Below are positions 16,915 through 42,658 of a stretch of DNA of 64,000 nt, one piece after another. Source of the stretch: an uncultured candidate division Zixibacteria bacterium (GTDB lineage Bacteria > Zixibacteria > MSB-5A5 > UBA10806); contig CAWFQL010000003.1 of the NCBI GenBank assembly GCA_963817915.1, forward strand, positions 64,001 through 128,000, read 5' to 3'. Position 1 is the first letter of the stretch. Each line of letters starts with the position of its first letter. The notes under the pieces are model-generated. The model saw only the letters and a list, made by a program, of their open reading frames with translations. It was not told the DNA's origin and searched no databases. The position numbers and the translations under genes are program-made.

Positions 16915-16925
16915 CGATTACTTTC

Positions 16926-17786: not shown

Positions 17787-17801
17787 TCTTTTGATGTCAA
17801 A

Positions 17802-18896: not shown

Positions 18897-19304
18897 TAGA
18901 TTTTTTCTCCTATAAAAATCATACTTGCACGCGAATATACATTGTTTTTCATTAGAGTTCCAGAGTGAAATTGAAAATATGGAAATTCGATTGCGATTCG
19001 AGAATAATTGCTATTTAGCATGATCCGTATTGGCTGCCTAAGCCAGATATGCTATTTTATATAGGAAGGGGGTTTGTGAGCAGAAAATTTCTTGATTTTG
19101 ACATTTATCCTTCACAAATCCTTAAATAAGATGGCCAAACGACATTTTTGGAAAAGCTAAAATTAACATATCGTTCGATTAATAATTACACTAAAGCAAT
19201 ACCTATATATAATACAAAACGGATTAAAAAGCCATTGACATCCATTAAGGCAATATTATATTTATATGCATGCTTAGATAATAGCATTTAGAATTTTATC
19301 CCGG

Positions 19305-20945: not shown

Positions 20946-21162
20946 CATTTGGCATAATTTGCGCTATTGTTTGCCCAACCCGAAAAATTGTACTTATCAA
21001 TTAGAAAATCTTCGGCGTGTTTTTATATCTAGTCATGATTAGCCCAATATATTAGAGCGTTTCCACTCATTGTTTAATGCATAATAAAATTCCGCGGTTA
21101 ATATCCCTTGACATCTCATCATATTGCAGGCATTTTCATCAATAAATTTGGGGGTATATTTA

Positions 21163-22192
21163 ATGGCGAATCCGAAAAACATATCTAACCTGCTGGCGTT
21201 CAGAATGGCGTCGCATACGCTTCGCAATATGATAACCAAAAAGCCGATCTGCATAGCGTTGGAAGTAACCCACAACTGCACCGCCAACTGCCGCCATTGC
21301 GATAAGGGACCGAAAGTCGATGACCATGCGGTCGGGGCGTTAGAATATAAAAAGATTTGCGATGAGCTGTCGCCATCGATGATTCAAATCGCCGGTGGGG
21401 AGCCGTTGAAACGGGCCGAACTGCCCGAAATAGTCAGGGCATTATACAATCCCGATAAAATCCCGTTTCTGGTCGTAGTCACCAACGCGTCCTTATTGAC
21501 CAAAGAAAAATATCTCGAACTGCGCGAGGCTGGGATAAAGCAATTCTCGATCTCGCTCGATTTCCCCGATAGCCGCCACGATGATTTCCGCCGAATTCCC
21601 GGACTGTTTGACCATTTGAATAAATTGATACCGGAATTAATCGCCATGGGCAATGGCGATGTTACAGTCAATACCTGCATCACGAGGGTTAATTATCCCT
21701 ATCTCATGGATATAATCAAGAAAGTGGCATCATGGGAGGCCAAGCTCAATTTCTCGGCCTATACCGATTTACGCACTCATGACGAGCAATACAATTTGAG
21801 GCATCCCGAAGACACGGTCACAATTCGACAAAATTATCGATCAGATATATTCCGATGAGACAGCGGCAAGTTGTGTGATGACATCGCAAAAGGTCATGCG
21901 TCGTTTCAATAGATTCTATAAAGAGAAATGCTATATCCCCAATTGCCAGACCGGATACAAATTTCTGATTGTCAATCCCGATGGCACCCTGACGCCTTGC
22001 GCCATGTTCATCAAGGATCGTTATAAGAGCCAGAAGGAATTGATCGAAAAATTCGTCAAAAAGACCGATTGCGGGGGATGCTATATCTCGATCCGCGCCA
22101 ATACCGAAAAATCACTGTGGGAACTCTTAACCGATAATCTGCGTGCCTACAAACTCGGCCTGAAAAGCGCCGCGAAATATGGGACAAGGTGA
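21163..22192 (+). CDS. Radical SAM protein with SPASM/twitch-like C-terminus (one frameshift near 21820)
   Basis: CTANCRHC and GGEPL. Removing one base near 21820 joins the 21875..22192 segment (C..G..PDG..PC..CGGC). Confidence 0.8.
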
Positions 22193-26464: not shown

Positions 26465-26492
26465 CAAGGGGGACGATATGTCCCCCTTTTTT
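26465..26492 (+). terminator. Intrinsic terminator
   Basis: AAGGGGGAC-gatat-GTCCCCCTT followed by a T-run. Confidence 0.85.
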
Positions 26493-26867: not shown

Positions 26868-26896
26868 TTGTCCGAATCCGATTTTTCCGCTATAAT
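26868..26896 (+). promoter_or_regulatory. Sigma-70 promoter of the multiheme cytochrome operon
   Basis: TTGTCC-N17-TATAAT. Confidence 0.6.
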
Positions 26897-26932
26897 CTTA
26901 ATGGGACGATAATTTTAATCCAGGGGGTATTC

Positions 26933-27838
26933 CTGCAGGTAAGACGTGACGCTACTGGGGCCGAGGGGAAATCAAGGTACAGATTACTTATAAGAATTGT
27001 CCATATTGTCGCATTAATAATATTCGCGGTCTTCCTCTTCCAGGGCATTTCTTATTATCTGGCGCCGTTTTCCCAAAGGCCTCATTTAGAAGATTATAGG
27101 ATTTTGCGACCGGCGGCGATCTATGGCCATACGTTCGGAGTCGTAGGCTCGTTCTTTATGATTTGCATGTTGTCGTATACTCTAAGGAAAAGGATCAAGC
27201 TATTCAAGAATTGGGGATCGATCGGCAAATGGCTCGACATTCATATATTTCTCGGTATCTATGGTCCATTGCTTGTGATTTTGCATTCGACCTTCAAGGT
27301 GCAGGGATTGGTTGCTGTCAGCTTCTGGTCGATGGTTGCGGTCGCGACGAGCGGAATATTCGGTCGATATCTATATCTACAGATCCCGAGGAATATCCAC
27401 GGCGACGAACTCAGCGTCAAGGAGCTCGATGAAATGAGCCAGGGGTATTACGATAAATTGAAAAATGAATTTGGCTTTACCGATGAAACATTAAAGAGCC
27501 TGAAAGAGCATAGTACTTCTGGAATAGATAAGAGCGTAGGTCCGGCAATGGTACTCTGGATACTTATTAAGGACGATATAAAGCATATATTCTCGGGGCG
27601 AAAGGAACAGAGAAAATTGGCGTCGAAGCTGAATATACCGCGCGAAGCAATATCTCGATTTCTTAAATCTAACCGCCGTCAAAATCTTCTCGAGCGAAGA
27701 ATAGCCCTTATGAATGGGGTTCAGCAGATGTTTCATTACTGGCATGTAATTCATAAGCCGTTCGCGTTCGTAATGTACATAGTAATGTTAGTGCATATAG
27801 TAGTGGCAGTCTGGACAGGATACAAATGGATATTCTAA
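26933..27838 (+). CDS. Inner-membrane cytochrome-b / ferric-reductase-like protein
   Basis: Several TM helices with His residues (WLDIHIFLG..ILHSTF; WHVIHKPF..VHIV). The frame is open upstream of the tracked 27104 start and adds another TM; CTG at 26933 follows an AGGGGGT RBS. Confidence 0.75.
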   Translation: MQVRRDATGAEGKSRYRLLIRIVHIVALIIFAVFLFQGISYYLAPFSQRPHLEDYRILRPAAIYGHTFGVVGSFFMICMLSYTLRKRIKLFKNWGSIGKWLDIHIFLGIYGPLLVILHSTFKVQGLVAVSFWSMVAVATSGIFGRYLYLQIPRNIHGDELSVKELDEMSQGYYDKLKNEFGFTDETLKSLKEHSTSGIDKSVGPAMVLWILIKDDIKHIFSGRKEQRKLASKLNIPREAISRFLKSNRRQNLLERRIALMNGVQQMFHYWHVIHKPFAFVMYIVMLVHIVVAVWTGYKWIF

Positions 27839-29577
27839 GACATATTATTCGAAGAGATATCGGTCGATCAACTGTAGTTACTGCGGTCCGCTGGATAAAA
27901 ATTCTTGTATATATTCTACTGGTATCATTTATTCTGGCATCTTCAGACGCCTTCGCGCAACTCTCACCCGGTAAATTATCAAAAGCGCATTCTGACCTCG
28001 AAGGTGTTGAGCACTGTAGTCAATGTCATGACTTTCAAGAGAAGTTATCGTCGGACAAATGCTTGACCTGTCACAAGACGCTTGGTGAACGAATAAAAGG
28101 CAGCAAAGGGTTGCACAGCAGACCAGAGTATTCACAATGTCAGACATGTCATATCGAGCACCAGGGACGCGATTTTCAGTTGGTTTACTGGAAAGATGGA
28201 GAGCAGAATTTCGATCATACATTGACAGGATATACATTAGAAAATAAGCATGTCGGCCTTAAATGCCGCAAGTGCCATTTGCCGCAGAATATTAAGAATA
28301 AAGAAATTATGATAAGCGATAAGACAAATCAGGATCACACTTACCTCGGGCTTGATAAGGAATGTAATACTTGTCATATCGATAAGCATCGAGGTCAGTT
28401 CAAGGATTCCTGCCAGAAATGCCATAATACGACCGGTTGGAAGCCTTTATCGGGATTCGATCATTCTAAGACAAATTACATTTTGACCGGCAAGCATATT
28501 GATGTTAAATGCGGCAAATGCCATCCTGAGATAGTCGACAATCGTTCATTGGAAGATAGCTCGTACGCTAAATTTGCCGGAGTGGCCTACAAACAATGTC
28601 TCGATTGCCATCAGGATATTCATAAAGGAAAATTCGGCCAGACCTGCGAAACATGCCACAATACCGGCGGCTGGATGAGTATCGCCCATAACAAATTTGA
28701 TCACAATAAAACCAATTATCCATTATTGGGAAAGCATATCACTGTAATTTGCGAGAAATGCCACAAACCGGGAAAACCGCTCAAGGGATTGAAATATAAT
28801 AACTGCGCGGATTGTCATAGCGATTATCACGTTGGGCAGTTTGCGAAAGCGGCGACAAGTCTAAAGTGCGAAAAATGTCACACAGTTTTTGGTTACTCGC
28901 CTTCTAAGTATACTATCGCCAACCATGATACCAGCGGATATCCGTTGGCGGGAAGCCATTTGGCAGTGCCCTGTATTTTGTGCCATATGAAAATTAAAAT
29001 GGCCGATGGTAGCGATAATGTCAGATTCAAGTATGATTCTGCTCATTGCAAGGATTGCCATAAGAATCCGCATAAGGACCAGGTCGATAAATATCTGAAG
29101 GGGGATGGATGTGAATTTTGCCATAAGGTCGATAGTTGGAAGAAATCGACTTATGATCACGCCAAGGCGAAATTCGCTCTCGAAGGCAAACATATTAAAG
29201 CGGATTGTGTCGTCTGCCATAAACCAGTAAATGGTGAGAAGTCGGTTTATCAATTCGCGGGCTTGCCGAAAACCTGTCAGGAATGTCATAAGGATATTCA
29301 TCAGGGCCAATTTGCCAAGGCAGTTAAGGTGAAAAAGACCGAGCAGATGCTGACCGACTGCACTCGTTGCCATACTCCGAATTCATGGAAGGCCGAGAAA
29401 TTTGACCATGCTCGCGATTCAGTATTCAAGCTCGATGGCGCCCATCTCAAGGTAGTATGCGGCGGCTGTCACAAGAAGAAGAAGATTGATGATGTTGAAT
29501 ACGCGGTTTATAAGCCATTGGAAGTAACTTGCAGCTCATGTCACGCCGGCAAGAATTTTCAGAGTACCGGGGGATAG
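27826..29577 (+). CDS. 20-heme c-type cytochrome, Lys-rich, secreted
   Basis: Signal peptide ending AFA-QLSPG; 20 CxxCH counted; FDH..T.Y.L.GKH repeats. Confidence 0.92.
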   Translation: MDILRHIIRRDIGRSTVVTAVRWIKILVYILLVSFILASSDAFAQLSPGKLSKAHSDLEGVEHCSQCHDFQEKLSSDKCLTCHKTLGERIKGSKGLHSRPEYSQCQTCHIEHQGRDFQLVYWKDGEQNFDHTLTGYTLENKHVGLKCRKCHLPQNIKNKEIMISDKTNQDHTYLGLDKECNTCHIDKHRGQFKDSCQKCHNTTGWKPLSGFDHSKTNYILTGKHIDVKCGKCHPEIVDNRSLEDSSYAKFAGVAYKQCLDCHQDIHKGKFGQTCETCHNTGGWMSIAHNKFDHNKTNYPLLGKHITVICEKCHKPGKPLKGLKYNNCADCHSDYHVGQFAKAATSLKCEKCHTVFGYSPSKYTIANHDTSGYPLAGSHLAVPCILCHMKIKMADGSDNVRFKYDSAHCKDCHKNPHKDQVDKYLKGDGCEFCHKVDSWKKSTYDHAKAKFALEGKHIKADCVVCHKPVNGEKSVYQFAGLPKTCQECHKDIHQGQFAKAVKVKKTEQMLTDCTRCHTPNSWKAEKFDHARDSVFKLDGAHLKVVCGGCHKKKKIDDVEYAVYKPLEVTCSSCHAGKNFQSTGG

Positions 29578-29579
29578 GT

Positions 29580-32500
29580 ATGAAAAAGTTTTTTGCGATA
29601 ATATCTGCCATAGCTGTTGTGTTGTGCGGTGTACTTGTTTTCAGTCAGGAGCCGACAGCAAATCCGCATGGCAAATTAAAATGGGAATGCAGCGCGTGCC
29701 ATAGCACCGATTCCTGGAAAATTACCAAAGCTCCAACCGGATTCAAGCATGCGGATACAGGGTTTGCCTTGCGGGGAGCGCACGATGTTACGGACTGCAG
29801 CGATTGCCACAAGGATTTGACATTTTCCCATATCGGCACGGCTTGCATAGATTGTCATACGGATATTCATCGCGGGCAATTTGGCAATTATTGCGAAAAA
29901 TGCCATCTGCCCGATAGCTGGCAAAATCGCCAGGAGCAGTTAGGCTTGCATTCATCGCGCGGATTTCCATTGATCGGTATTCATTCGATAGCTGATTGCG
30001 GCGCATGTCATGTAGGCCAGCAGCGAAATGAGTATTCCGGTACTCCGATTGAATGTATTGGCTGTCATCAGGGTAATTACGCCTCCACTACCAACCCTAA
30101 TCATGTGCTTGCTAAATTCAACACGGACTGCCGCGAATGTCATAACGAATCCGCGAGTTCATGGAAAAATGCTACCTATGCGCATCCGTCGATATTCGAA
30201 ATCCATGGAGCGCATGTTGGTCTCGAATGTGTCAGATGCCATGCAGACTAGCGTTCGCGGGCACGCCAAGGGAATGTGTCGGCTGTCATTTGCCGGCTTA
30301 TCAAACGGCTAATAACCCGCCGCATGCCGTGCCGGTATTCCCGGAAGATTGCGTCATGTGTCATAACGATATTCAATGGATGGGAGCGACATTCAACCAT
30401 CTTCAGGCCACAGGCTACGAATTACTCGGAGCTCATGCGACGGTGCATTGCAACGATTGCCATACCAATAATAATTATGTCAATATTCCTAACCAGTGTT
30501 TTGGGTGCCATCAGAATAATTATAATGAAGCGGCTAATCCCAATCACCAAACAAATAATTTCGATCACGATTGTACCGTCTGCCATAACTTTAATGGCTG
30601 GTCTCCTTCGACATTCAATCATAGCGCAACCCGATTCGCTCTTACCGGAGTGCATCTAACAACACAATGCGTAGCCTGCCATACCAACGGCTACCAGAGT
30701 ACTCCGATGGATTGTTACAGTTGCCATCAAAACAATTATAATTCGGCGACAAATCCCAATCATGCGACCAATAATTTCAATCACGATTGCACGCAATGCC
30801 ATAATACCGCCGGATGGTCGCCATCGACATTTAATCATAGCCAGACCAGGTTCACATTAACCGGCGCGCATTTGACTATCCAGTGTGTTGCCTGCCATGC
30901 TAATGGCTACCAGAATACACCGCTGGATTGTTATAGCTGCCACGTTAATAATTTTAACGGAGTGACTGATCCCAACCACGTGACCAATAATTTCAGCCAC
31001 GATTGCACCCAATGCCATTCTACGGTCTCATGGTCAGGCGGAACATTCAATCATAGTCAGACGCAGTTCCCGTTGACCGGCGCCCACGCTACAATACAAT
31101 GTATAGCATGCCACGCCAATGGTTACCAAAACACGCCGACGGATTGCTATAGTTGTCATTTGAACGATTTTAATGGGGCGACTAATCCCAATCATGTCAC
31201 CAATAATTTCGGCCATGATTGCACCCAATGCCATTCCAATACAGCCTGGTCGCCTTCGACATTCAATCATAGCCAGACACAATTCCCACTTGACGGGCGC
31301 TCATGCGACAAGGCAGTGTATTGAATGCCATGCCAATGGCTACCAGAACACTCCATCAGACTGCTATAGCTGTCATCAAAGCAATTTTAATGGTGCGACC
31401 AATCCTAATCATGTGACCAATAATTTCAGTCATGATTGTACGCAATGTCATTCGACTTCCGTCTGGATACCATCGACTTTTGATCATAATCAAACCAGAT
31501 TTCCATTAACCGGTGCCCATATATCTCGGCAATGCGTTGATTGCCATGCTAATGGTTACCAGAATACCCCATTTGATTGCTATAGCTGCCATCAAAGCAA
31601 TTTTAACGGCGTTAGCGATCCTAATCACGTCACCAATAACTTCAGCCATGATTGCACGTTATGCCATTCGACTTCAGGCTGGTCACCGGCGACTTTCGAC
31701 CATAACTCGACCAGATTCCCATTAACCGGACGGCACATTGGCCTAAATTGTGTTGCCTGTCATGCCAATGGTTATCAGAATACTCCATATGATTGCTATA
31801 GCTGTCACGTAAATGATTATAATGACGTAAATGATCCGGACCATAGGGCCAATAATTACAGCCATGATTGCACGCAATGTCATAATACATCGGGATGGGG
31901 TAATGGTACATTCAATCATAATCCGACGAGATTTCCATTGACCGGGGCGCACGTGAGCCTGCCATGTATTTCATGTCATGCCAATGGTTATCAGAATACG
32001 CCTTACGATTGCTATGGATGTCATCAGACTAATTATAATATGGTCCCGGACCCAAACCACGTGCAAAATAATTTTAATCATGACTGTACGCAATGCCATA
32101 ATACTTCAGCCTGGACACCGGCATCATATGATCATAGCCAAACAAGATTCCCGTTGACCGGTGCCCATGTTGGACAGACATGTGTTGCCTGTCATGCCAA
32201 TGGCTATAATAACACGCCATTTGACTGCTTTAGCTGCCACACAGGTAATTATAATTCGGCTACTGATCCCAACCATGTGACCAATAATTTTGACCATGAC
32301 TGTACGCGATGTCATACATACTAGGTCTGGTCGCCTTCGACATTCAGCCATGGCTCGACAAGATTCCCGTTAACCGGCGCGCATGTTCCTCTTCAATGTA
32401 TTTCTTGTCACGCCAACGGATATCAGAATACACCGTTGGATTGCTACAGTTGCCATGTGGGCAATTATAATTCGGTTACCGACCCCAACCATGTGACCAA

Positions 32501-34083
32501 TAATTTCGACCATGATTGTACCCAGTGTCATACGACATCGGTCTGGAATCCATCGACATTTAATCACAGCTCGACCAGGTTCCCCTTAACTGGCGCGCAC
32601 AATACGCTGCAATGCATTTCGTGTCATGCCAACGGATACCAGAATACGCCGTTGGATTGTTACAGTTGCCATGTCGGTAATTATAATTCCGTTCCGGATC
32701 CTAATCACGTTACCAATAATTTCAGCCATGATTGCACTCAATGCCATACAACTGCGGGCTGGACTCCGGCGAATTACAATCATAGTCAAACGAGATTTCC
32801 GTTAACTGGGGCGCATGTAAATCTTGCCTGCGTGGCCTGCCATGCCAATGGCTATCAGAATACGCCGTTCGATTGCTATAGCTGCCATCAGAATAACTAC
32901 AATGGCGTCGTCGATCCCAATCACAACACCAATAATTTCAGCCACGACTGCACAGTATGTCACACTACATCCGGATGGACACCTGTATCGTTCAATCACG
33001 GATTGACGCAATTCCCGTTAACCGGGGCGCATGTAAATCTTGCCTGTGTTGCTTGTCACGCCAATGGATACCAAAATACGCCTATGGATTGCTATAGCTG
33101 TCACCAGAGCAATTATAATGGTGTTACGGATCCTAATCATGTCACCAATAATTTCAGCCATGACTGTACTATCTGTCATACGACCACAGCCTGGAATCCT
33201 TCGACATTCAATCACGGGCAAACCCAATTCCCGTTAACCGGCGCGCATGTGAGTCTTGCCTGCATATCCTGTCACGCCAATGGGTACCAAAATACGCCTA
33301 TGGATTGCTATAGCTGTCATCAGGGCAATTATAACGGTGTTACGGATCCTAATCATGTCACCAATAATTTCAGTCACGACTGCACCGTATGTCATACTAC
33401 TTCAGCCTGGACTGCCCGCGACATTTAATCATGGCACGACCAGATTCCCGTTGACCGGTGCGCATGTAAGCCTGGCCTGTATAGCCTGCCATGCCAATGG
33501 CTATCAGAATACGCCTTTCGATTGCTATAGTTGTCATCAAAGCAATTTCAATGGTGTCGTAGATCCAAACCACGTCACCAATAATTTCAGCCATGACTGC
33601 ACCGTATGTCATTCTACTTCGGCTTGGTCGCCGGCGTCATTCAACCATAATCAAACACAGTTCCCATTGACCGGAGCGCATACTACACTGCAATGTGTCG
33701 CCTGCCACGCCAATGGATACCAAAATACCCCGACTGCTTGTGTCAGCTGCCATCAGGCCGATTATAATGGCGCCACAAATCCGAATCATACCGCTCAGGG
33801 ATTTCCCACGCAATGCCAGCAGTGTCATACAACCGCTAATTGGACGCAATTAACTTATAACCATAATACTCAATATTTCCCAATTACTACCGGAAGGCAT
33901 GCTACCGTTTGGTCAACCTGTGCTACCTGCCATAATATTCCTGGAAATCTTGCGCATTTCGAATGTATCCTCTGCCATGAGCACAACCGCTCTGACACAG
34001 ATTCACAGCATCAGGGTAGGTCGGGTTATCAATATCTAAGCACTGCGTGCTACGCTTGCCATCCCAGAGGCAATGCCGGTTAG
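29580..34083 (+). CDS. Giant ~1500-aa multiheme cytochrome c with 61 CxxCH (reconstructed across three frameshifts and one in-frame TAG)
   Basis: One signal peptide (MKKFF..FS-QE). The repeat register continues across breaks at ~30250, ~31290, 32322 and ~33414. CxxCH counts per segment: 8+14+15+1+14+9. Confidence 0.82.
30600..33840 (+). repeat. ~15 tandem 216-bp coding repeats (72-aa triheme unit)
   Basis: Unit FNH..TRFPLTGAH....C..CHANGYQNTP.DCYSCH..NYN...DPNHVTNNFSHDCT.CH....W.P; copies differ at synonymous sites. Confidence 0.93.
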
Positions 34084-34092
34084 GTGTAGTAT

Positions 34093-34896
34093 ATGTCTGG
34101 CATGCGTATAATACTCATTATGGCAATTAGCCTTGCCACGGGAGTTCCCTGCTATTCACAGGAGAATCCTCATCGAGACTCCAAGCTCGATTGCCAGGAA
34201 TGTCATACCGCTTCAAGTTGGACCGATATCAAGTTTGATCATCAGAAGACCGGTTTTGTGCTCGATGGAAATCATTTGGAGGTTCCCTGCGTCTCATGTC
34301 ATTCATTGGTTGATTTCAATATAGTTTCAAAGGAGTGTGTTTTTTGTCATGTTGATATTCATCAGGGGAAATTGGCCCGTACTTGCGAACAGTGCCATTC
34401 GACAAGGGGATGGAATATTTTCAATACAACAAGAGCGCATGCGAATACGACATTCCCTCTGATTGGCGCGCACGCAAAGCTCGATTGCCGTTCCTGCCAT
34501 CTAAGCGAAATTGAAGGAGAGTATTCATTGCTTAAATCGGAATGTATATCTTGCCACGAGGCCGACTTTAATAATGCCCAAAATCCGTCCCATTCGGCAT
34601 TGGGATTCGGGACTCGCTGCAATGATTGCCATACGCTTTTATCCTGGCGCCCCGCCGATTTTTCACAGCATAATTCGTATTTTCCTATATATAGCGGGGC
34701 ACATGCCGGAAAATGGCGGAGTTGTTATGATTGTCATCCGACTCCGGGTGATTACGGAATCAGTACCATGACCTGTTTTTCCTGCCATGTTCATGACCAA
34801 GGGTCGACAGATTCTCGGCACCAAGAGGTCGCAGGATACGTTTATCAAAGCAGCGCCTGCTATAATTGTCATTCAAGCGGAAGCGCTGGAGGCTGA
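34093..34896 (+). CDS. 10-heme c-type cytochrome, short paralog of the giant cytochrome
   Basis: Signal peptide; 10 CxxCH; shares the NPH N-cap and FPI..G.H...W..GY.Y.S.ACY.CH..G C-cap with 29580..34083. Confidence 0.92.
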   Translation: MSGMRIILIMAISLATGVPCYSQENPHRDSKLDCQECHTASSWTDIKFDHQKTGFVLDGNHLEVPCVSCHSLVDFNIVSKECVFCHVDIHQGKLARTCEQCHSTRGWNIFNTTRAHANTTFPLIGAHAKLDCRSCHLSEIEGEYSLLKSECISCHEADFNNAQNPSHSALGFGTRCNDCHTLLSWRPADFSQHNSYFPIYSGAHAGKWRSCYDCHPTPGDYGISTMTCFSCHVHDQGSTDSRHQEVAGYVYQSSACYNCHSSGSAGG

Positions 34897-34906
34897 GAGG
34901 TCTAAT

Positions 34907-36517
34907 ATGAAGGGATTATTAGTCAAAATCCTTGCAACGATAATATTCGCGCTTATTTTCCGGGTTGGAGCGTCGGCCGCTATCCATGTCCAATATCTTT
35001 CCCAGGAAGCGGTCTATATCGATGCCGGAATCGAAGACAGCCTTTCAATCGGCGATCAACTCGAGATCAGAAAAGGCGACAGCCTTATTGCTCAATTAGA
35101 AATTATCTTCGCGTCCGAGCATTCGGCTTCCTGCAAGATACTTAATTCGACAGGTACAATCGAAATCGGGGCTACCGTAAATATCACTTCAAGGGCGATC
35201 GTGGCCAAGCCGGCCCCGGCAGATTCTGTTGCGGATACGACTGCGAAAAAACTTGAGCCTGCGCCAATTGCAGTTGCGCCAAAGCCTAAGAAAAATTCTA
35301 CCCATTTCAGCGGGACTATTGCCTTGCAGACTTATAATTGGAACGATATCACTTCATCGAATCTTGATTTCTCCCAGCCGTCGGCGAGAATAAATATTAC
35401 CGCCCTGAAACTCTGGGGCACCGAGCTTTCATTTACGCTAAGATCGACCATCCGCAATGAACGAAGGACCCGCAGCTATAGCAGCTCTGTTCCCAAAAGC
35501 GAATGGCGCAATAGGGTATACCAACTTTCAATAGGGTATTCGGATGACAACGGGCCATTCGGGTTTGAATTCGGCAGAATAATCTCGAATAAAATCAGCG
35601 GTATCGGATATATAGATGGAATCCTTGTCCATCGCAGGGTGAGCAAATTGGTCAATATGGGAGTATTTGTAGGGACTCAACCCCAATGGCAATATTCCGA
35701 TTTTCAAACTTCGATCCAGAAATACGGATTTTATACTAATTACGCGCGAGGCGAATATGCCAAATCTCGTTATGAAGTGACCCTGGCGGCCGCGGGCGAA
35801 TATCATAGCAATATCGTCAGCCGTGAATTCATTTATCTTCAGAATAATCTCATTATTAAGGGCGATTGGAATATTTTTCAGAGCGCGGAATTGGATCTTA
35901 ATCGCGGATGGCGTAAAGAAAAATCGAAAATAGGCACATCTCTAACTAACTTCTACCTTTCCACCAGGAAACGAGTTACTGGCTGGCTTTCGGCGAGCCT
36001 GAGCTTTGATTCCCGTAAAAACTATTGGACCTATGAAATTCGTTCGATGGCCGAGCAGCTTTTCGATAGCAATGTCCGGCGCGGAGGCAGAGCGGATATT
36101 TCGCTGAGACTGCCTGGCAATTTCCAGCTTCTCGCGGGATTTGGCTTGCGGAAACGGGCCACGGAATCGGGCTCTACCTATTCTTATTCTGGGGCATTGA
36201 ATAAATCCAATATCCTCAATTCAAAGCTGGACATAAATATTCAGATGTCGGGATTTACCAACCCGCTTACAAACGGGTATAATGTATCCACGACTCTCGG
36301 TCGCTATTTCGGCAGGGGGAACTACCTGAGTATTGGATACAGCGGATACGTATATTCGATCCAAAATGGCGGTCCAACCCGCAGTAATACCGCATATCAG
36401 CTAAGCTCAATGATAAGCATTATCAGATCCGTATATTTTTCCGGTCAATATGAATACGACACTGGGGATGATACCAAAGGCCATCGAATAGTAGCGGAAC
36501 TCGGTTATCGTTTCTAA
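34907..36517 (+). CDS. Outer-membrane beta-barrel (putative cytochrome-sheathing porin) with small N-terminal domain and Pro/Ala/Lys linker
   Basis: Signal peptide from ATG 34907; amphipathic beta-strands; terminal ELGYRF beta-signal. Confidence 0.8.
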   Translation: MKGLLVKILATIIFALIFRVGASAAIHVQYLSQEAVYIDAGIEDSLSIGDQLEIRKGDSLIAQLEIIFASEHSASCKILNSTGTIEIGATVNITSRAIVAKPAPADSVADTTAKKLEPAPIAVAPKPKKNSTHFSGTIALQTYNWNDITSSNLDFSQPSARINITALKLWGTELSFTLRSTIRNERRTRSYSSSVPKSEWRNRVYQLSIGYSDDNGPFGFEFGRIISNKISGIGYIDGILVHRRVSKLVNMGVFVGTQPQWQYSDFQTSIQKYGFYTNYARGEYAKSRYEVTLAAAGEYHSNIVSREFIYLQNNLIIKGDWNIFQSAELDLNRGWRKEKSKIGTSLTNFYLSTRKRVTGWLSASLSFDSRKNYWTYEIRSMAEQLFDSNVRRGGRADISLRLPGNFQLLAGFGLRKRATESGSTYSYSGALNKSNILNSKLDINIQMSGFTNPLTNGYNVSTTLGRYFGRGNYLSIGYSGYVYSIQNGGPTRSNTAYQLSSMISIIRSVYFSGQYEYDTGDDTKGHRIVAELGYRF

Positions 36518-36565
36518 AGTTGATATTCATAGAGATGTTTAGAATTCAGGATTTTGTGAGGTAAT

Positions 36566-37900
36566 ATGGAATCAGACGCAATCTGGATATTCACGGTAAT
36601 ACTCATAGTAAGTATTTCCGCCCCATATTTTATAAAATTTCGCAAACGCCAGAAAATGGATATCGAACGGCGGAAAGAGGCGGAAATCTTGGGCATCAGC
36701 AAGCCTTCCAGCCAATATCCGATGATCGACTCCACTCTCTGTATTGGCTGCCGCACCTGTGTCGATGCTTGTCCCGAGCATGATGTGCTCGGTATCGTAT
36801 TCGGCAAGGCAATGGTTATAAACGGCCAGCGTTGTGTTGGACATGGCTACTGCGAACTCGTGTGTCCTGTTGGAGCATTGAAAGTGGGACTCGGCGATAT
36901 CAAAACTCGTCCCGATATTCCAGTCGTAGATGACAATAACCAATCCAATATTCCGGGCCTTTTTATCGCCGGTGAATTGGCCGGTCTTTCGTTGATCAGA
37001 AATGCTATAGATCAGGGAAGACGGGTTATAGAAAAAATAGCCGAAAATAATAATCGCTCAGCCAATGAAAATATTTACGATGTCATAATAATTGGAGCTG
37101 GTCCGGCGGGGCTTACTGCCTCACTTAATGCGATCAAAAACAAACTTTCTTACCTTCTAATCGACCAGCAGGCTCCGGGTGGTACGATTCTTCAATATCC
37201 CCGACATAAATTGGTAATGACCCAGCCTGTGGAAATTCCCCTTTATGGCTGGCTCAAGAAAGAAGAGTATGCCAAGGAAGACCTGCTGGATATATGGAAT
37301 AAAATATTGAATGACTTCAAGATCAATGTTCGAGTGGGTGAGAAGATCGAATCTGTCAGAAAAGAAGCGGAAGTATTCAAGGTTAAATCGCTTGCGGCCG
37401 AGTATTCCGCAAATCATGTGGTGTTATCGATGGGTCGCCGGGGCACTCCCCGAAAACTTGGCGTAACCGGTGAAGATCTTCCCAAGACTCTCTATCAGCT
37501 GCTCGACGCGCAATCGTATAATAACAATCATATTCTTGTTGTGGGCGGCGGCGATAGCGCTATCGAAGCGGCAGTTGGTCTTGCGCATCAGACCGGAAAT
37601 AAAATCACGATTTCTTATAGAAAAAGCACATTTGCCCGTGTTAAGAAGAAAAATGAAGATCTTGTCAAAAAAGCTATCGCTGAAAAGAAAGTCAGAGCTA
37701 TTTTCAATTCGGAAGTTCTCGAAATCAGAGATAAGAATGTCAAACTAAAAGTAGGAGAAGACATAGTCGAAATACTCAACGATTTTGTCTTCGTGTTTAT
37801 CGGCGGCGAGCCTCCTATCAAAATGCTTAAGGAGATGGGCATATTATTCGGCGGCGAAGCGCCGGTTATCGAAGTTCCGCCTGTCCCGGCAATGTCTTAA
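36566..37900 (+). CDS. Membrane-anchored 2x[4Fe-4S] / FAD / NAD(P)H oxidoreductase (TrxR/YpdA-like fold)
   Basis: N-terminal TM; CIGCRTCVDACP and CVGHGYCELVCP; GAGPAG; GGGDSA..SYR. Confidence 0.88.
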   Translation: MESDAIWIFTVILIVSISAPYFIKFRKRQKMDIERRKEAEILGISKPSSQYPMIDSTLCIGCRTCVDACPEHDVLGIVFGKAMVINGQRCVGHGYCELVCPVGALKVGLGDIKTRPDIPVVDDNNQSNIPGLFIAGELAGLSLIRNAIDQGRRVIEKIAENNNRSANENIYDVIIIGAGPAGLTASLNAIKNKLSYLLIDQQAPGGTILQYPRHKLVMTQPVEIPLYGWLKKEEYAKEDLLDIWNKILNDFKINVRVGEKIESVRKEAEVFKVKSLAAEYSANHVVLSMGRRGTPRKLGVTGEDLPKTLYQLLDAQSYNNNHILVVGGGDSAIEAAVGLAHQTGNKITISYRKSTFARVKKKNEDLVKKAIAEKKVRAIFNSEVLEIRDKNVKLKVGEDIVEILNDFVFVFIGGEPPIKMLKEMGILFGGEAPVIEVPPVPAMS

Positions 37901-37922: not shown

Positions 37923-37957
37923 AAAAAAGGCGGCACTCAGGCCGCCTTTGAAAAAAA
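37923..37957. terminator. Probable bidirectional terminator
   Basis: A-run, AAAGGCGGC-actcag-GCCGCCTTT, between convergent genes. Confidence 0.75.
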
Positions 37958-37968: not shown

Positions 37969-40900
37969 TTACTTCAACAATAACATCTTGTTGGTTTTGG
38001 TGAAATTAGCGGTTTCGATTTTGTAGAAATAAAGCCCGGTCGCGACTTTTCGGCCCGATTCATCCTTGCCATCCCAAACAACCTGCTTATAGCCGGCAGC
38101 CTGTCTTTGATCCACAAGGTTTTTCACCTTCTGACCCATAATATTGAATACTACAATTCTCACTTCGGAATCGACCGCGAGCCCATAAGAAATCGTGGTT
38201 GAAGGATTGAATGGGTTCGGATAGTTTTGCGATAGGAAGAACTTCTTCGGAGCGGTGATATCATCGTTCAACCCTGTGATTGTCAGCGCCTTTCCAGAGC
38301 CGGCGGTTGATCCGAATGATTCGGCGGTTAGATTTCCTTCGGAGAATAGAGCGCTAACGTAATACCAATAAAGATTAGTATCGGCAAGATCAATATCCGA
38401 ATAGCTCGTTGCCTGAATCGGAGAATCGTTCAGCTTCGAAAAATCACCATTGGGCCAACGGCTTCTGTAAATATTAAATCCGGCGAGATTAGGATTCGTT
38501 AATGTATCCCAGCGAACCTCGATTAAATTAGAAATATTGTTCGATGCTGAAAGACTGGATGGTATCGGGCATCGAGTGAGATGTAATGTCTCCGTCTCGA
38601 TAAGCTGGTTGGCTACCACCTGGATACTTTCCTGATAGGCAGGGTAATATCCAAGGGCTTCGGCGGTGAGGCTTATTGTTCCGGGCGGTACTTCTTTAAT
38701 AAAGAACCTGCCATCGCTGGCTGAAATTCTCCTTTGACCTGTGCTCGCATGAATTTGAGCGTCGCCATTCTGGCCGCTTCCATCAAGATCGACACTTCCC
38801 CTTACTGAGCCGCGTCCGGTACTGGTGGTAATCAGCGTGACTGCGCCGTCAATCAAGGTCGCTCCTCCCGGAGCGTAATAATTGTCGTGCGTAAATTCCA
38901 GCCCGCGTTGTTCATCGTAGCTCTCGAATCCTACGGACGCGTAACCCTCTCCAGAGTCGGTGTTATTAACATCTCTGTAAATAAAAAGGATATCGGAATC
39001 GCCTGTAAGGCTCGGATAATAGGCTGGATCCATAATAACCATCTGGAATGTTTCGTACTGGAAGGTATTCGTATTGGTTAATTTCAACCACTCTATATAA
39101 AATTTATGGTTCACCGAATCATACCATTTGTAAACACCTAAGTGCGTTCCGTCAATTCTGAGATCATCCCAGAACGGCGAAATCTGTCCGCGCGCGTTAC
39201 CCGGGTCAGGAATTGGCCAATTGAAGAAGTTGGCCCAGTAATTTCCCTGCATATCCATTGGAGTAGTATCCAACGCTGCGAAACCATTGATACAAACTAT
39301 CATCGCCCCGTAATCTTGGCCATAATACTTCATGTTGAATGGCAATGTCACGAGAACCGATTTGTCATCCAACTCGGATCCATAATTCAAACGAGTACCC
39401 TGCCCGCCGCTATCCGGGCTGATTTCAACCCATTGATAAGTCGGCATCATTGCGTATGCGCTGTCCATACGATCATACATGTAATAGCCATAGGAATCCG
39501 GCCCAACCGGGTCCCTTGACGAAATTCGTCCAACTGTTAGTGTAAATGGAATCGATGACTTTGAACCCGAAAGGGTTGATATATGAAGAGTCAGATTTAA
39601 TTTTTTGCCCTTAAAGGCAGTCGAATCGCATGTGATACTGACGAGAGAACTGGAATTGTCGCCGGAGCCGCCGATTGAAATATCACCGAAATTGGCAATT
39701 GATCCAACGGCATTCGCATAATCATCATCGGTTGTCACAATACCGGTAACACCCTGGGCATTAAGCGATCCGCTATTGGATAAAAATATCTTGAGATTGG
39801 CTGTTTGACCCGGACCGATAAGGCTGTCACCCTCGGGGATTATAGCTCTGGTGACTGCGAATTTTGGAGCCTTTACCGGGAATTCGATCATAGTTTGCCA
39901 GCTGTCATTATTTTGGTCTCTGATTGTCAATTTCTGCCTGACAGTTTGACCATCGGAAGCGGCGGGATTTACATATACCACAAATGGCGCTTCTGATGCT
40001 CTCGATTCGCCCGGCGCCAGATTGCCGTAATTGCGAATACCGTCATAGACAACAGAATTCCCATCGGTTGATTCCAACTGCGCGGATACATTCGTAGCTG
40101 AAATATCCGTACCGAAATTCTTGATTGAGACATTTAATTCGATTGTCTCGCCAGGCGCGGCTAAATGATCGCCGTCTCCGTGAGAAAAGCCGTCGGTATC
40201 ATCATCGATATAAATGGAGTCCAATCCTACTGCCAGATCGGATGTCGCTATTTCCACATTGGTTTGGTAAGGAATAAGATTTTGTCCGGAAACGGTAAGC
40301 TTCATTGAGCCGGGAGTATTGGCGTCAAATATTAGCGTGACATTTCCCGATTCATCGGTTTTATCGACACTGAATACTTCTTCGGTTGTCCCAATAGTTT
40401 TGATCAATGTCACATATGCGCCTGAAATCGCGTTGCCCGCTGAATCTATCACTGAAGCATTAAAGCTGTTTGTTCCCAGTGCCACAGTATCGAGATGTGT
40501 AACGTTTATGCTTATTGGAATTTTAGTGCGTAATTCAAGTTCAGGATCGCCCAGCATATTATATGTATTGAAATATTGTTGTATCATTCCTCCCGGGGCG
40601 GTCTGTCTTGGGAATGTCCAGTAATCCTGAAGCTTTCCTCTCACTGCCGCGGCGGCAAAATGATAGACATTCTCTTCAAATATCCCGAAGAAATAGCCGA
40701 CCATAATGGGGTTATTCCATCTGGTATGGGTGTCGTGATCGGAAACCCCATAAAACGCCGGTCCGCCTTTCAAGCTATCAGGACTACGTCCCATTCTAAT
40801 CCAGGTCTCGCCAAAACATTCACCGCCGAAATCACCGGTGCCGCAAGTCAATGGAGACAGAACGCCAAGTTTTTGATTGTCCTGTAAATTGAGCAAATCG

Positions 40901-42285
40901 TAACTCGTCATCGATGGGCCGGCCCAGCCGTCAGTTCCTCCAGCCCCGCGATATTGAATAAAACCGATTCCAGCGTTGAAAAGAGAAGGCAGCCTCCAGC
41001 CGGAATCGAATACGGTGTCAACTCGGACAAAACCATGCCTGAGCTGAAGCTGACGGACCCAGAGAGTAGTCAATCTTGACGATTCATAATACACATAAGC
41101 CACCGAGAGCCCTCTGATCCAATGCTCCGGATCGCGCATGAGCGGATACTTTTCATACTTGAGAATCTTTGAAAGTGCCACTCTGGCCTGGGACATAGAG
41201 TCTACCGACATGCGAGCGATAAAGATATCCGGGATATAATCCGAACCATCTACGCACGCGTATTTATTATCGGACGCGTAAATGTTGCTTCCGACAATAT
41301 AGGGATAATCCGGCACGACAAACATATGATCGCGATCACCGACTATCATAACATACTCCGGAGGAATCTCCCAGGAAGCGTAAGCTGTGTCAAGAAAGGC
41401 CTTTATCTGTTCCTTACTTGGAGACCCGGTTGGTCTAATTTCGGTTGTAGGAACAATTCTGACCGGATACCCCTTTTGATGCTTCCATTGAGCCACTGCT
41501 TTTACAGTATCAACCAGTGTCGGTCTGCATATTATAACGTATCCCCCGCGCTTAACTTCAACATTATCCATTGCCTGGTCGAAATTGGCGAACATAGCCT
41601 TATAAATTGGATAAAATCCCTCGGATAGATATCTATGATGGACTGTCTTGGGATTGATTACTTCGCCATCATAGCTGATATCAACAGAAATGTCCCGGTA
41701 TACGCGCAATACCTTTTGAACAGGATTATACTGCGCCGGATAGAGTGCAATCCGCACAAAACGAACATCGCGCATAATCTGCGGATCGGAAGCCTCCGCA
41801 AGATTGCCGGGATAAAACGCATCTCTTGCGTAAGTCTGCAGGTCAATTGTGAATGGTACGGCTGACGCACCGGGAGTTTCCGAAGGGGATGGCTGAACCG
41901 GGGCAAGTTCGATATTCGGCAAATCATCATAACCGGAATATGTGACTGTCAATCTTACTCCTGCCTGGTCGGGGATGATTATGTTGGCTGTCAACGCTGG
42001 AAGATCGGGCTTACCATCTTCAGCCAATTCGCTTGGCGTAATAAATTCGCCAACCGGCAGGTCAAGTTTCTTATAATTGCTGCCGCCAAGAGAAATATCG
42101 TTTAGTGCCACAGCCGGCAAATTCAAATTCAACGAGGTTTTGGAACCCAAGTTCCTCACCTCTAATTTCGACGATTCCGCCGAAATATCTGATAGAACGC
42201 GGATGTTTTGAGAGGATAATGACTGCGAAATCATTAAAAACAGCAGAAACACAGTCAAGATGCACGCTTTAGCCTTGATACTCAT
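37969..42285 (-). CDS. Gingipain-like C25 family protein with propeptide, Ig-like domains and Por/T9SS-FlgD-type C-terminal domain
   Basis: WKHQKGY, YVMIVGD, SDNKY, IARMS and YNMLGDP motifs; C-terminal QNYPNPFNPSTTI..WDGKD..GLYFY..KMLLLK. Start taken at MSIKAK (42285). Confidence 0.88.
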   Translation of the reverse strand: MSIKAKACILTVFLLFLMISQSLSSQNIRVLSDISAESSKLEVRNLGSKTSLNLNLPAVALNDISLGGSNYKKLDLPVGEFITPSELAEDGKPDLPALTANIIIPDQAGVRLTVTYSGYDDLPNIELAPVQPSPSETPGASAVPFTIDLQTYARDAFYPGNLAEASDPQIMRDVRFVRIALYPAQYNPVQKVLRVYRDISVDISYDGEVINPKTVHHRYLSEGFYPIYKAMFANFDQAMDNVEVKRGGYVIICRPTLVDTVKAVAQWKHQKGYPVRIVPTTEIRPTGSPSKEQIKAFLDTAYASWEIPPEYVMIVGDRDHMFVVPDYPYIVGSNIYASDNKYACVDGSDYIPDIFIARMSVDSMSQARVALSKILKYEKYPLMRDPEHWIRGLSVAYVYYESSRLTTLWVRQLQLRHGFVRVDTVFDSGWRLPSLFNAGIGFIQYRGAGGTDGWAGPSMTSYDLLNLQDNQKLGVLSPLTCGTGDFGGECFGETWIRMGRSPDSLKGGPAFYGVSDHDTHTRWNNPIMVGYFFGIFEENVYHFAAAAVRGKLQDYWTFPRQTAPGGMIQQYFNTYNMLGDPELELRTKIPISINVTHLDTVALGTNSFNASVIDSAGNAISGAYVTLIKTIGTTEEVFSVDKTDESGNVTLIFDANTPGSMKLTVSGQNLIPYQTNVEIATSDLAVGLDSIYIDDDTDGFSHGDGDHLAAPGETIELNVSIKNFGTDISATNVSAQLESTDGNSVVYDGIRNYGNLAPGESRASEAPFVVYVNPAASDGQTVRQKLTIRDQNNDSWQTMIEFPVKAPKFAVTRAIIPEGDSLIGPGQTANLKIFLSNSGSLNAQGVTGIVTTDDDYANAVGSIANFGDISIGGSGDNSSSLVSITCDSTAFKGKKLNLTLHISTLSGSKSSIPFTLTVGRISSRDPVGPDSYGYYMYDRMDSAYAMMPTYQWVEISPDSGGQGTRLNYGSELDDKSVLVTLPFNMKYYGQDYGAMIVCINGFAALDTTPMDMQGNYWANFFNWPIPDPGNARGQISPFWDDLRIDGTHLGVYKWYDSVNHKFYIEWLKLTNTNTFQYETFQMVIMDPAYYPSLTGDSDILFIYRDVNNTDSGEGYASVGFESYDEQRGLEFTHDNYYAPGGATLIDGAVTLITTSTGRGSVRGSVDLDGSGQNGDAQIHASTGQRRISASDGRFFIKEVPPGTISLTAEALGYYPAYQESIQVVANQLIETETLHLTRCPIPSSLSASNNISNLIEVRWDTLTNPNLAGFNIYRSRWPNGDFSKLNDSPIQATSYSDIDLADTNLYWYYVSALFSEGNLTAESFGSTAGSGKALTITGLNDDITAPKKFFLSQNYPNPFNPSTTISYGLAVDSEVRIVVFNIMGQKVKNLVDQRQAAGYKQVVWDGKDESGRKVATGLYFYKIETANFTKTNKMLLLK

Positions 42286-42658
42286 TTGACCTCCACTAAG
42301 CCTTAAAAAAATAAACATAAACATATCCCATAATTTTAGGCGAGAATATCCCCCCAGCGATTTCTCGTTTACCAATGGATTAAACAACTTAATCCGCTTG
42401 GCTCGTTCCACTAATATAATCGATAATTTTTTACTTAGTAAATTATGTCATTGAAATTTTGATTTAAATTGGGAAATTCTCAAAATTTGCAACCCCATTT
42501 TTGAGACTATTATTGAGTGGGCCGCCCACGTTAACCTGATGAATATTTTGCGGTTATGGAAATTATTGGCGGTTCATTTAATGCGGTGATAATTATACGA
42601 AATAGAAATGGGGCGAATAATGTTCGCCCCGAATTACTCCGACTATTGAAAAATCAGA

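Follow-up and report, generated by a model that had tools for sequence, protein, structure and literature searches.

The window analysed here, a 64,000-nucleotide stretch of DNA from an uncultured candidate division Zixibacteria bacterium, contains a cassette of genes for multiheme cytochromes, predicted membrane proteins and an oxidoreductase, which is set off by hairpins at both ends (Table 1). It is centred on a very long cytochrome built of tandem triheme units. The promoter-like match upstream of the cassette has to be read against a frequency of 34 such sites found versus 27.5 expected by chance.

Table 1. Features of the cytochrome cassette and its borders (positions in the window)
Feature	Position	Strand	Description
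Terminator-like hairpin	26466-26488		Belongs to the upstream gene
Sigma-70-like promoter match	26868..26896	+	10/12 consensus bases, upstream of the cassette; consensus match only
Inner-membrane protein (IMP)	26933..27838	+	Five hydrophobic segments, two W-x3-H-x13-H, S-G-x-x-G
20-heme cytochrome	27826..29577	+	583 aa, basic, pI about 8.8
61-heme cytochrome	29580..34083	+	Signal peptide, N-cap, tandem 72-73-aa triheme units, C-cap; four breaks
10-heme paralog	34093..34896	+	Repeat-family form with n=0, made of N-cap and C-cap
Outer-membrane beta-barrel	34907..36517	+	Signal peptide, then a small N-terminal beta domain and a flexible linker; 22 strands predicted, last residue Phe
Oxidoreductase	36566..37900	+	Membrane-anchored, 2x[4Fe-4S] plus FAD/NAD(P), pyridine-nucleotide type
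Hairpin	37926..37949	.	Ends the operon against a convergent downstream gene

The IMP, whose motifs are defined as in PMC5566968, is predicted to be a di-heme b protein resembling ferric reductases; in 12 aligned IMPs, the four histidines and the SG..G motif are invariant and the first tryptophan is present in 11. Its start is uncertain, with the first standard start codon at 27104, a frame that is open further upstream, and a CTG at 26933 that follows a purine-rich site. No IMP relatives were found in viral contigs. The oxidoreductase is TrxB/YpdA-like, scoring below the cut-offs of these families, and adjoins the IMP in all 44 long loci; all four partners occur together in 39 of these 44 IMP-anchored loci, and the 10-heme paralog is present in a minority of cassettes. 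The barrel has no match in Pfam or NCBIfam. Genes for cytochrome c assembly are encoded in the same genome.

The first-pass annotation had joined five open reading frames into one protein of about 1500 aa with 61 CxxCH motifs, and this reconstruction holds. A six-frame scan yields exactly 61 motifs between 29688 and 34048 on the + strand, distributed over the five segments as 8+14+15+15+9, and reading through with X at the four breaks gives 1500 aa, i.e., 24.6 aa per heme, with a computed mass of about 163 kDa for the apo and 200 kDa for the holo form. Every segment scores above the cut-off of Pfam Cytochrome_C7, and MtrC-domain Pfam models remain below theirs. The core units, 216 nt in length, share mostly 65-76% DNA identity (maximum 84%), no exact repeat within the gene exceeds 38 nt, and synonymous differences are found in 1353 of the 2892 same-residue codon pairs in 11 units; the units have, thus, diverged with only short exact repeats, and assembly duplication is ruled out, as had been argued from the synonymous divergence.

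The regular 72-aa period spans only about 14 central units. It is flanked by an N-terminal cap with motif spacings of 36, 16, 16, 35, 19 and 25 and a C-terminal cap with spacings of 35, 15 and 28, both of which are conserved and distinct from the core units, so that the heme count reads as 61 = 10 + 3x17. The histidines of the PNH, FNH and GAH motifs, noted earlier as three spare ligands per unit, are invariant in 237 units of relatives and in all 14 regular units of the window; with three CxxCH per unit, this count supports the proposed bis-His ligation. A fourth histidine (SHD/NHD) is found in 14/14 window units versus 73% of those of relatives and accounts for the 81 non-motif histidines that face 61 hemes; spare histidines amount to at least 1.00 per heme in 128/128 homologues, and no conserved methionine exists across the 237 triheme units.

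A signal peptide is predicted on the first of the five segments alone. The reported lack of a lipobox and of a type IX secretion (T9SS) tail was borne out, since a lipobox-like motif appears in only 1 of 92 homologue leaders and the chain ends 6 residues past its final CxxCH, just as 104 of 128 homologues terminate 4-7 residues past theirs; the T9SS sorting-domain model TIGR04183 has no match in the repeat cytochrome and matches two other proteins of the window. In composition, the protein is rich in Asn, Thr and Ser and low in charge.

The reading frame is interrupted by frameshifts near 30250, 31290 and 33415, which score best as +2, +1 and +1, and by an in-frame TAG at 32322-32324, the four breaks falling at four different phases of the repeat unit. 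Frameshifts are common in this assembly, where a set of 180 conserved genes totalling 217 kb has 16, including one false positive at a gene boundary; all 13 that could be resolved are +1 insertions, and both copies of EF-Tu and of GidA are affected. Four breaks in 4.5 kb compare with 0.33 expected, about 12 times the background (Poisson P about 4e-4), and the repeat genes of relatives, after gene-boundary counts had been removed by eye, are not broken at the rate of the window; for both reasons, random error alone is insufficient to explain the density. A systematic breakage of repeat genes in relatives was considered and rejected, since gene boundaries and off-frame motifs make the raw value of 0.19 per kb too high. 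The metagenome collection contained no match to an exact 26-base pattern taken from the 61-heme gene.

That the five segments constitute one gene is strongly supported by sequence comparison, in agreement with the single chain originally proposed. A genome of the same family carries an intact 58-heme ortholog, 63% identical over 1417 aligned positions, which is open across the positions matching the breaks in the window, and most orthologs are single open frames, exemplified by 40 barrel-anchored loci that yield 28 doubly capped proteins. Split forms in the assemblies of a few relatives would suit segments that are separate proteins, or that are linked through programmed frameshifting or readthrough of a stop; given these intact frames, the lone signal peptide and the scattered phases of the breaks, such an arrangement is most improbable. 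More weight, albeit still little, is due to a recent, true inactivation of the gene in this strain, with or without added sequencing errors. It would account for the excess of breaks and for the TAG, which entails no net length change and bears no insertion signature, the intact adjoining 10-heme paralog could act as a substitute, and the cassette is patchy in the family, its barrel occurring in 4 of 9 same-family genomes. However, all 61 motifs and the three ligand histidine columns are intact, and near-invariant columns show 4/308 departures (1.3%) as compared to 0-2.6% in intact relatives with at least six units, and, hence, give no signal of decay. Furthermore, the three frameshifts are insertions like the errors seen genome-wide, including those in both EF-Tu copies, and the 20-heme, 10-heme, barrel and oxidoreductase genes of the window are all open. 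The four breaks are, on this comparison, probably assembly errors.

Across relatives, the repeat cytochromes form a large family in which the end caps are fixed and the heme number follows 10+3n, ranging from 10 to 115, plus one fusion with 137. Among 8000 scored sequences, 2582 matches of 792-2520 aa were counted, and 9 longer ones among 725. A heme number of 1 mod 3 holds for 66 of the 70 doubly capped proteins among those listed and for 34/35 and 27/28 in two locus sets that possibly share genomes. This comparison of repeat numbers bears out the notion of a length defined by the gene. The partner cytochrome has 20 hemes in 50/60 and 31/32 cases of two locus sets in which the repeat protein varies from 10 to 73, and within one phylum the length of the repeat cytochrome spreads 7-fold. 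The fusion, a single-member cluster, comprises a 20-heme-type N-half, a repeat array and a C-cap in one chain of 3415 aa with 137 motifs. In the protein atlas, the repeat falls into generic C7 clusters of low recognition value and the barrel into unnamed clusters only.

Most likely, the 61-heme cytochrome is, therefore, an ordinary-length member of a widespread family that has already been noticed, and the uniqueness initially attributed to it was overstated. Table S5 of PMC11495043 (2024) is headed by an entry of 112 hemes and 2799 aa, which corresponds to one of the homologues found here (P0124) by the same N-terminus, length and motif count; the available portions of that paper give counts and speculation on electron transfer or storage, and hold no operon, repeat unit or 10+3n rule. 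In Lentimicrobium (Bacteroidota), the genome of which was recovered only from cultures with conductive particles, an outsized cluster of porin and multiheme cytochromes, in which 61- and 20-heme cytochromes lie next to each other, has been described and called unlike characterised modules by its authors, whose account goes no further in the available portions (PMC13013709, Nat Commun 2026); the same heme numbers together with a porin suggest that it belongs to this family. The literature surveyed, mostly non-subscription, contained no description of the cassette or the 10+3n rule and no experiment on any member.

The closest published architecture is PCC3 (He et al. 2017, PMC5566968; Hoover et al. 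2023, PMC10734462), consisting of an IMP, a periplasmic cytochrome with about 21 hemes, a larger repeat-rich cytochrome and a porin. Its IMP is described as about 300 aa long with five transmembrane helices, SGxxG and two Wx3Hx13H (PMC5566968), its large cytochromes have 22-39 aa per heme, with members of 63 and 85 hemes (PMC5566968, PMC10734462), and their extracellular location is a CELLO/PSORTb prediction (PMC5566968). The comparison loci used here (L141-L220) were recognised by architecture alone and are not the named Sideroxydans lithotrophicus ES-1 sequences. They share with the cassette the four-part layout and the IMP motifs; their IMPs are 25-29% identical and reach profile scores of 113-135 bits, the 20-heme protein is homologous to their 21-heme protein (30-34% over about 520 aa, E 1e-57 to 1e-67), and an adjoining oxidoreductase is 39-42% identical. 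This oxidoreductase is part of the cassette and is absent by name from the description of PCC3 in the available portions of PMC5566968.

Towards the outside, the two systems diverge. With its 61 hemes, 24.6-aa density and tandem repeats, the repeat protein resembles the large PCC3 cytochrome as architecture only; the sequences match weakly (24-31%, E 1e-12 to 1e-18) and differ in motif spacing. A shared triheme module is likely from this similarity, albeit in a repeat unit that differs in its 72-aa length and its own caps. The barrel has about 535 aa, in contrast to about 850 aa in PCC3, and its similarity to PCC3 porins is weak, with at best 14.5 bits by profile and an HHalign probability of 3.7% (E 0.012, 139 columns). 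Judged by sequence, the inner half of the cassette is homologous to the PCC3-architecture clusters, whereas the outer half differs, as do the hosts, which belong to the Zixibacteria, Ignavibacteria, Calditrichota, Bacteroidota and Acidobacteriota versus the Proteobacteria for PCC3.

The AlphaFold model of the barrel (pLDDT 78) has 22 strands, and all of its top fold matches are beta-barrels. MtrB is among them (Z 14.5, rmsd 5.8, 350 aligned), ranking 13th and tied with unrelated barrels; hence, the match is generic. Of the 201 genomes of this phylum, 66 carry the barrel. Four loci, all from one genus, contain only a capped repeat cytochrome and a barrel, their repeated unit being of the C-cap type, unlike that of the window; in three of the genomes concerned (95-97% complete), these queries detected no IMP and no 20-heme N-domain, and the initial idea that the four loci were 20-heme fusions was rejected in favour of two-gene units. 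Because some relatives keep just these two components, the barrel is likely the partner of the repeat cytochrome and a candidate for its export route. None of the best 150 barrel homologues contains CxxCH, as would be seen in a cytochrome-barrel fusion, and distance correlations across 66 cassettes picked out no single partner of the barrel.

As for the shape of the array, an AlphaFold model of an intact 43-heme ortholog, built on a 35-row alignment, reached only pLDDT 53 and pTM 0.21 and, thus, does not separate a wire from a capacitor; this low-confidence model had no match in Foldseek and none at Z of at least 5 in VIA-align. A profile search of solved sequences yielded only the 16-heme cytochrome 1Z1N (E 1.6e-7), and a c7 polymer was absent from its 7 matches at E up to 1. 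By analogy with GSU1996, at 1 nm per heme, we infer an elongated shape of up to about 60 nm.

Taken together, with a probability of roughly 0.7, the locus holds one real gene with insertion-type consensus errors, coding for a Sec-exported, non-lipidated bis-His cytochrome of the 10+3n type (n=17), which would form the outer part, variable in length, of a trans-envelope electron conduit that has five genes and is a sister of PCC3. The repeat cytochrome probably carries electrons across the cell envelope. In the carrier order suggested by the gene products, electrons would pass from NAD(P)H to the membrane-anchored FAD/Fe-S protein, from there to the di-heme b protein and the fixed 20-heme periplasmic cytochrome, and on to the N-terminal end of the presumably heme-loaded repeat cytochrome, crossing the outer membrane at the 22-strand barrel, which would bind that cytochrome as its dedicated partner; the flow could run in either direction. 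Within the conduit, a projection of the array to the outside via its own barrel has somewhat less than an even chance; that it is periplasmic and has one end placed in the barrel is a serious candidate with the odds against it, secretion by another system is unlikely, and other arrangements are more unlikely still.

A stricter form of the conduit, speculative and rather unlikely in all its particulars, makes repeat cytochrome and barrel a self-contained two-part module. The chain would mature in the periplasm, thread its own barrel and project as a single-chain wire, with a reach of about 10 to over 100 nm that is set and re-tuned by gain or loss of triheme units, and would receive its electrons directly from cytoplasmic NAD(P)H through the FAD/Fe-S and di-heme b proteins, a split pair resembling a ferric reductase. 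If true, the threaded wire would add a third kind of nanowire to the polymeric cytochrome filaments and the Mtr-type caps, and one occurring in about a third of the phylum as well as in many Bacteroidota and Acidobacteriota.

Instead of conducting outwards, the array could be a periplasmic capacitor, coiled or lying along the membrane, in which length sets charge storage and the barrel holds one end or the 10-heme paralog. This reading, doubtful but deserving attention, agrees with a cleavable signal peptide lacking lipobox and sorting tail, with the tolerated spread in length, and with the fusion, in which a single chain unites a periplasmic-type cytochrome with the array. Both the wire and the capacitor idea were already in print for PCC3-type cytochromes (PMC5566968, PMC10734462), and a capacitor role has been proposed for members of the present family (PMC11495043) as well as for GSU1996, a periplasmic triheme polymer (PMC10138318). 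However, the repeat protein adjoins the barrel even where inner-membrane partners were not found, it is the fixed-length 20-heme protein rather than the variable one that appears suited to spanning a constant distance, for instance the periplasm, and the composition resembles that of the extracellular PCC3 cytochromes of He et al. (PMC5566968). The published PCC3 model suggests a different division of labour of the classical PCC3/Mtr kind, in which the barrel is occupied by the 20-heme cytochrome, and a type II or type IV pilus system secretes the repeat protein, which docks on the outer face like MtrC. Two GspF/PilC-type genes in this genome, with counterparts in 4 of 5 other hosts tested, are in line with it; they led us to reject the notion that the hosts are devoid of such machinery, so that export via the barrel is not forced. 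Nevertheless, this layout is improbable in view of the three near-complete genomes in which barrel and repeat cytochrome stand without a detectable 20-heme N-domain, of the missing lipid anchor to hold a secreted protein on the cell, and of the 137-heme fusion, which as one chain cannot be divided between two export routes. The first-pass annotation, by which the export route had been called unknown, missed the operon with the barrel as a candidate route for export or docking; type II secretion and type IV pilus routes are alternatives to it.

In OmcS and OmcZ, filament length is set by polymerisation, whereas the length of the window cytochrome is encoded in one chain. MtrC-type outer cytochromes are lipid-anchored, and in this respect MtrCAB differs from the cassette, which has no lipoprotein subunit. 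The logic of a conduit made of cytochrome plus barrel is common to the cassette and Shewanella MtrCAB (PDB 6R2Q). Single chains of tandem triheme domains are known from the c7-type “nanowires of hemes” of Geobacter, GSU1996 with 12 hemes and 12 nm and GSU2210 with 27 hemes (PMC10138318), for which the concept of a periplasmic wire or capacitor likewise exists. In GSU1996, however, each domain contains one His-Met heme (PMC10138318), in contrast to the three invariant spare histidines and the lack of a conserved methionine here; moreover, the window protein has five times the length, carries caps and belongs to an operon with a barrel.

The 61-heme gene is, thus, one of thousands, and its heme number is no record; of broader interest is the system, a conserved and unnamed cassette for a candidate electron conduit, shared by about a third of the phylum's sampled genomes and by many poorly studied bacteria from sediment, groundwater and sludge. 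For a protein crossing the outer membrane with neither lipid anchor nor sorting tail, the co-travelling barrel offers a candidate path. With one partner held at 20 hemes and its neighbour varying from 10 to more than 100 in steps of three, nature provides a length series suited to asking whether such proteins are wires or stores and how far a single chain can conduct. Genes for 23- and 40-heme cytochromes, barrel, IMP, oxidoreductase and ccsA are borne on plasmid pEMTOL02 of Emticicia oligotrophica DSM 17448, a cultured carrier of the cassette in a 40-heme version.

The 61 CxxCH motifs that the first-pass annotation had counted were recovered in a six-frame scan, spread over five segments (8, 14, 15, 15 and 9 motifs); rejoined with X at the breaks, these segments form one chain of 1500 aa, amounting to ~200 kDa including the hemes. 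The core units of the gene measure 216 nt and are mostly 65–76% identical to each other, no exact repeat exceeds 38 nt, and same-residue codon pairs between units differ in 47% of cases, which rules out a duplication during assembly and upholds the earlier argument from synonymous divergence. Bis-His ligation of all hemes requires no fewer spare His than hemes, as is seen in 128/128 listed homologues. The three spare His noted in each unit occupy columns that are invariant across 237 units of relatives (a fourth His is present in 73%), consistent with the bis-His ligation proposed. The 61-heme feature is real, an ordinary member of its family, and part of a system that is under-described.

Features of the window, of its genome assembly (G000) and of related loci
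Feature	Location	Strand
CxxCH motifs of 61-heme gene	window 29688 to 34048	+
Frameshift breaks in 61-heme gene	window, near 30250, 31290, 33415	+
In-frame TAG in 61-heme gene	window 32322	+
Operon: IMP, 20-heme cytochrome, 61-heme cytochrome, 10-heme paralog, barrel, FAD/Fe-S oxidoreductase	window ~26930 to 37900	
Start of IMP frame	window 26922-26935	
Beta-propeller protein	window 19305-20945	+
Radical SAM gene	window 21124-22192	+
PorU/gingipain-like protein	window 37969-42411	-
7-motif cytochrome	window 48101-49288	-
4Fe-4S membrane protein	window 50004-50780	
Second split gene	window 52372-53599	-
Frameshifted EF-Tu and GidA copies (presumed names)	G000 C17 469785-470994, 485646-486855; C16 414461-416285; C4 22753-24596	
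Other multiheme loci	G000 C17 236075-253497; C16 36125-40987	
Plasmid-borne cassette (L115)	pEMTOL02 8758-20556	
Tandem capped paralogs	L060 5314-10323	
Divergent oxidoreductase	L145, L148, L159 and others, ~4500-6500	

Judged from its sequence, the 61-heme locus is probably one intact gene (probability about 0.85), the breaks being assembly errors. The alternative, according to which the breaks are real and the gene is inactivated in this strain, draws on their density (four in 4.5 kb versus 0.33 expected, P ~4e-4) and on the TAG codon, which shows no net indel. However, comparison of relatives' proteins with 180 conserved genes of this assembly (217 kb) revealed 16 frameshifts in 14 genes; with one excluded as a gene-boundary false positive, one unlocated and one unresolvable, the remaining 13 all were single-base insertions, and for the three frameshifts of the 61-heme gene the best-scoring changes are +2, +1 and +1. 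Also frameshifted are both copies each of two genes which we take, from their sequences, to encode EF-Tu and GidA; since this would be hardly bearable for a living cell, assembly errors are favoured. Inactivation is further disfavoured by an intact 58-heme ortholog in G008, a genome of the same family, and by the window units, which depart from near-invariant columns in 4/308 cases, the level of intact relatives. Findings in this assembly drawn from other frameshifted or split genes may be affected by the same insertion-error mode. Two further window genes, one for a radical SAM protein and one presumably for a dihydropyrimidine-dehydrogenase-like protein, are split by a frameshift, probably through the same error.

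Of 8000 proteins scored, 2582 with lengths of 792–2520 aa match the intact ortholog, as do 9 longer ones of 725; their sources include Ignavibacteria, Saprospiraceae, Lewinellaceae, Acidobacteriota, Eisenbacteria, Zixibacteria and Calditrichaeota. Their heme number is 1 mod 3 in 100/129 listed homologues and in 66/70 of those that are doubly capped (37 to 115 hemes). More than 61 motifs occur in 106/128 listed homologues, but the list is ranked by score and biased towards long proteins. A fairer sample consists of 40 loci chosen by the barrel gene from 66 barrel-positive genomes, with a preference for long contigs. It contains 28 doubly capped proteins with 10–73 hemes; the heme number is 1 mod 3 in 27 of these and at least 52 in 12, so that 61 hemes is an ordinary size. 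Of the genetically length-defined wire claimed earlier, the setting of length by the gene is supported, as heme numbers follow 10+3n across relatives, while 61 itself is not exceptional. The nearest relative of each of 11 scored window units is another window unit, and the same holds for 11/11 units in G008, whereas in two other genome pairs units match across genomes; in some lineages, therefore, repeat arrays are re-expanded or homogenised, and in others they are stable. One cassette (L060) holds three capped paralogs in tandem (31, 22 and 10 hemes).

The operon is bounded by two hairpins. Its IMP, a predicted di-heme b-type inner-membrane protein, lacks ATG, GTG or TTG at the relatives' start, where CTG follows a purine-rich site; this CTG would be a rare start codon unless a base is wrong there. 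Scanning species genomes confirmed at least 542 IMP relatives, of which 80 were kept; the closest named match among those listed is a Zixibacteria genome. In the 44 loci with at least 9 kb downstream, drawn from these 80 and one plasmid locus, all four partners occur in 39 and the oxidoreductase in all. The heme number of the partner cytochrome is 20 in 50/60 IMP-anchored and 31/32 barrel-anchored cases, sets that may share genomes. The barrel, present in 66/201 genomes of the phylum and with 1068 representatives at E 1e-30, has no Pfam matches; its predicted fold (pLDDT 78) comprises a small N-terminal domain and 22 strands and matches generic barrels only. Longer homologues (P0208, P0223, P0225, P0247, P0262, P0283) carry a duplicated N-terminal beta domain or an insert that looks SH3-like by eye, hinting at a periplasmic or cell-wall contact.

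The 100-kb plasmid pEMTOL02 of a cultured strain, Emticicia oligotrophica, carries ccsA, IMP and oxidoreductase genes, two cytochrome genes with 23 and 40 hemes, and a gene of barrel type; the presence of the whole cassette with ccsA on a plasmid suggests that it can move between hosts. In one genus (L241-L244), a capped repeat cytochrome (35, 36, 48 and, split, 30+33 hemes) is accompanied by the barrel only, and three of these four genomes (95–97% complete, two single-contig) gave no match to either the IMP profile or the 20-heme N-domain; genome G130 holds both such a two-gene unit and a full cassette. The L241-L244 cytochromes are built of tandem C-cap-type units, so the C-cap itself is a unit variant. 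In P0128 (3415 aa), a single-member cluster and the sole such fusion among 128 homologues, a 20-heme-type N-terminus runs into a repeat array and C-cap; its 137 CxxCH exceed the 112 of the largest protein named in the literature passages compared. Together, these gene arrangements suggest a head-to-tail order, the 20-heme protein preceding the N-terminus of the repeat protein, and a dedicated tie of the latter to the barrel.

Cytochrome c assembly genes are present in the genome, and the repeat cytochrome would be exported via Sec, with heme attachment in the periplasm. Electrons could then pass from NAD(P)H through the anchored FAD/Fe-S protein, IMP, the 20-heme cytochrome and the repeat cytochrome to the outside, or the opposite way. 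He et al. (2017, PMC5566968) liken the IMP motifs to a ferric-reductase membrane domain, and the annotation of distant plasmid homologues is iron reductase. Combined with a flavoprotein neighbour that is constant, this makes the inner half similar to a split NAD(P)H-dependent ferric reductase; a respiratory role of the conduit is therefore not required. An extended chain of 61 hemes would be ~60 nm long, taking the 1 nm per heme of GSU1996, for which a reference title in PMC10138318, a source that also describes its features, gives 12 hemes and 12 nm; the low-confidence structure model of an intact ortholog does not distinguish a rod from other shapes.

He et al. define PCC3, a porin-cytochrome cluster type, with 63- and 85-heme repeat-bearing members, and propose wires; their PCC3 section does not mention the FAD/Fe-S oxidoreductase. 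In passages of Hoover et al. (2023, PMC10734462), PCC3 cytochromes are modelled as elongated and for the most part linear, and a capacitor role is brought up. We retrieved 80 metagenome loci that carry an outer cytochrome of PCC3 type, their link to the named PCC3 being one of architecture, and analysed those of at least 12 kb. They contain genes for IMP, a 21-heme and a 36–56-heme cytochrome and an 850-aa porin, and, divergently transcribed, the same oxidoreductase. IMP, the 20-heme protein and the oxidoreductase of the window are clear homologues of theirs, whereas the repeat protein matches the outer cytochrome weakly and the barrel gives an ambiguous match to the porin. Our verdict from these sequences is that the system probably works like a PCC3 conduit, with a common inner half and a distinct outer module. 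Elsewhere, a 112-heme protein in Table S5 of PMC11495043 agrees with homologue P0124 in its N-terminus, its length and its motif count, and excerpts of other papers describe a porin cluster of Lentimicrobium that includes cytochromes of 61 and 20 hemes and differs from characterised modules (PMC13013709), neighbourhoods with >100 motifs, the repeat family being unnamed there (PMC11475568), and 40- and 33-heme cytochromes of anode Ignavibacteria with variable heme numbers in related proteins (PMC7399161). New here are the insertion-error signature, the contrast of fixed 20 versus 10+3n hemes, the two-gene barrel units, the 137-heme fusion and the cultured carrier with a plasmid-borne cassette.

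A type II or type IV pilus system might also export the repeat cytochrome. PorV-like genes are present in the genome, and among the window proteins a PorU/gingipain-like protein of 1480 aa and a beta-propeller protein have type IX-like C-terminal domains. Separate from the operon, a secreted cytochrome with 7 motifs, its CXXCH domains paired, adjoins a 4Fe-4S membrane protein, and other multiheme loci of the assembly contain open frames with 42, 19, 13 and 11 CxxCH.
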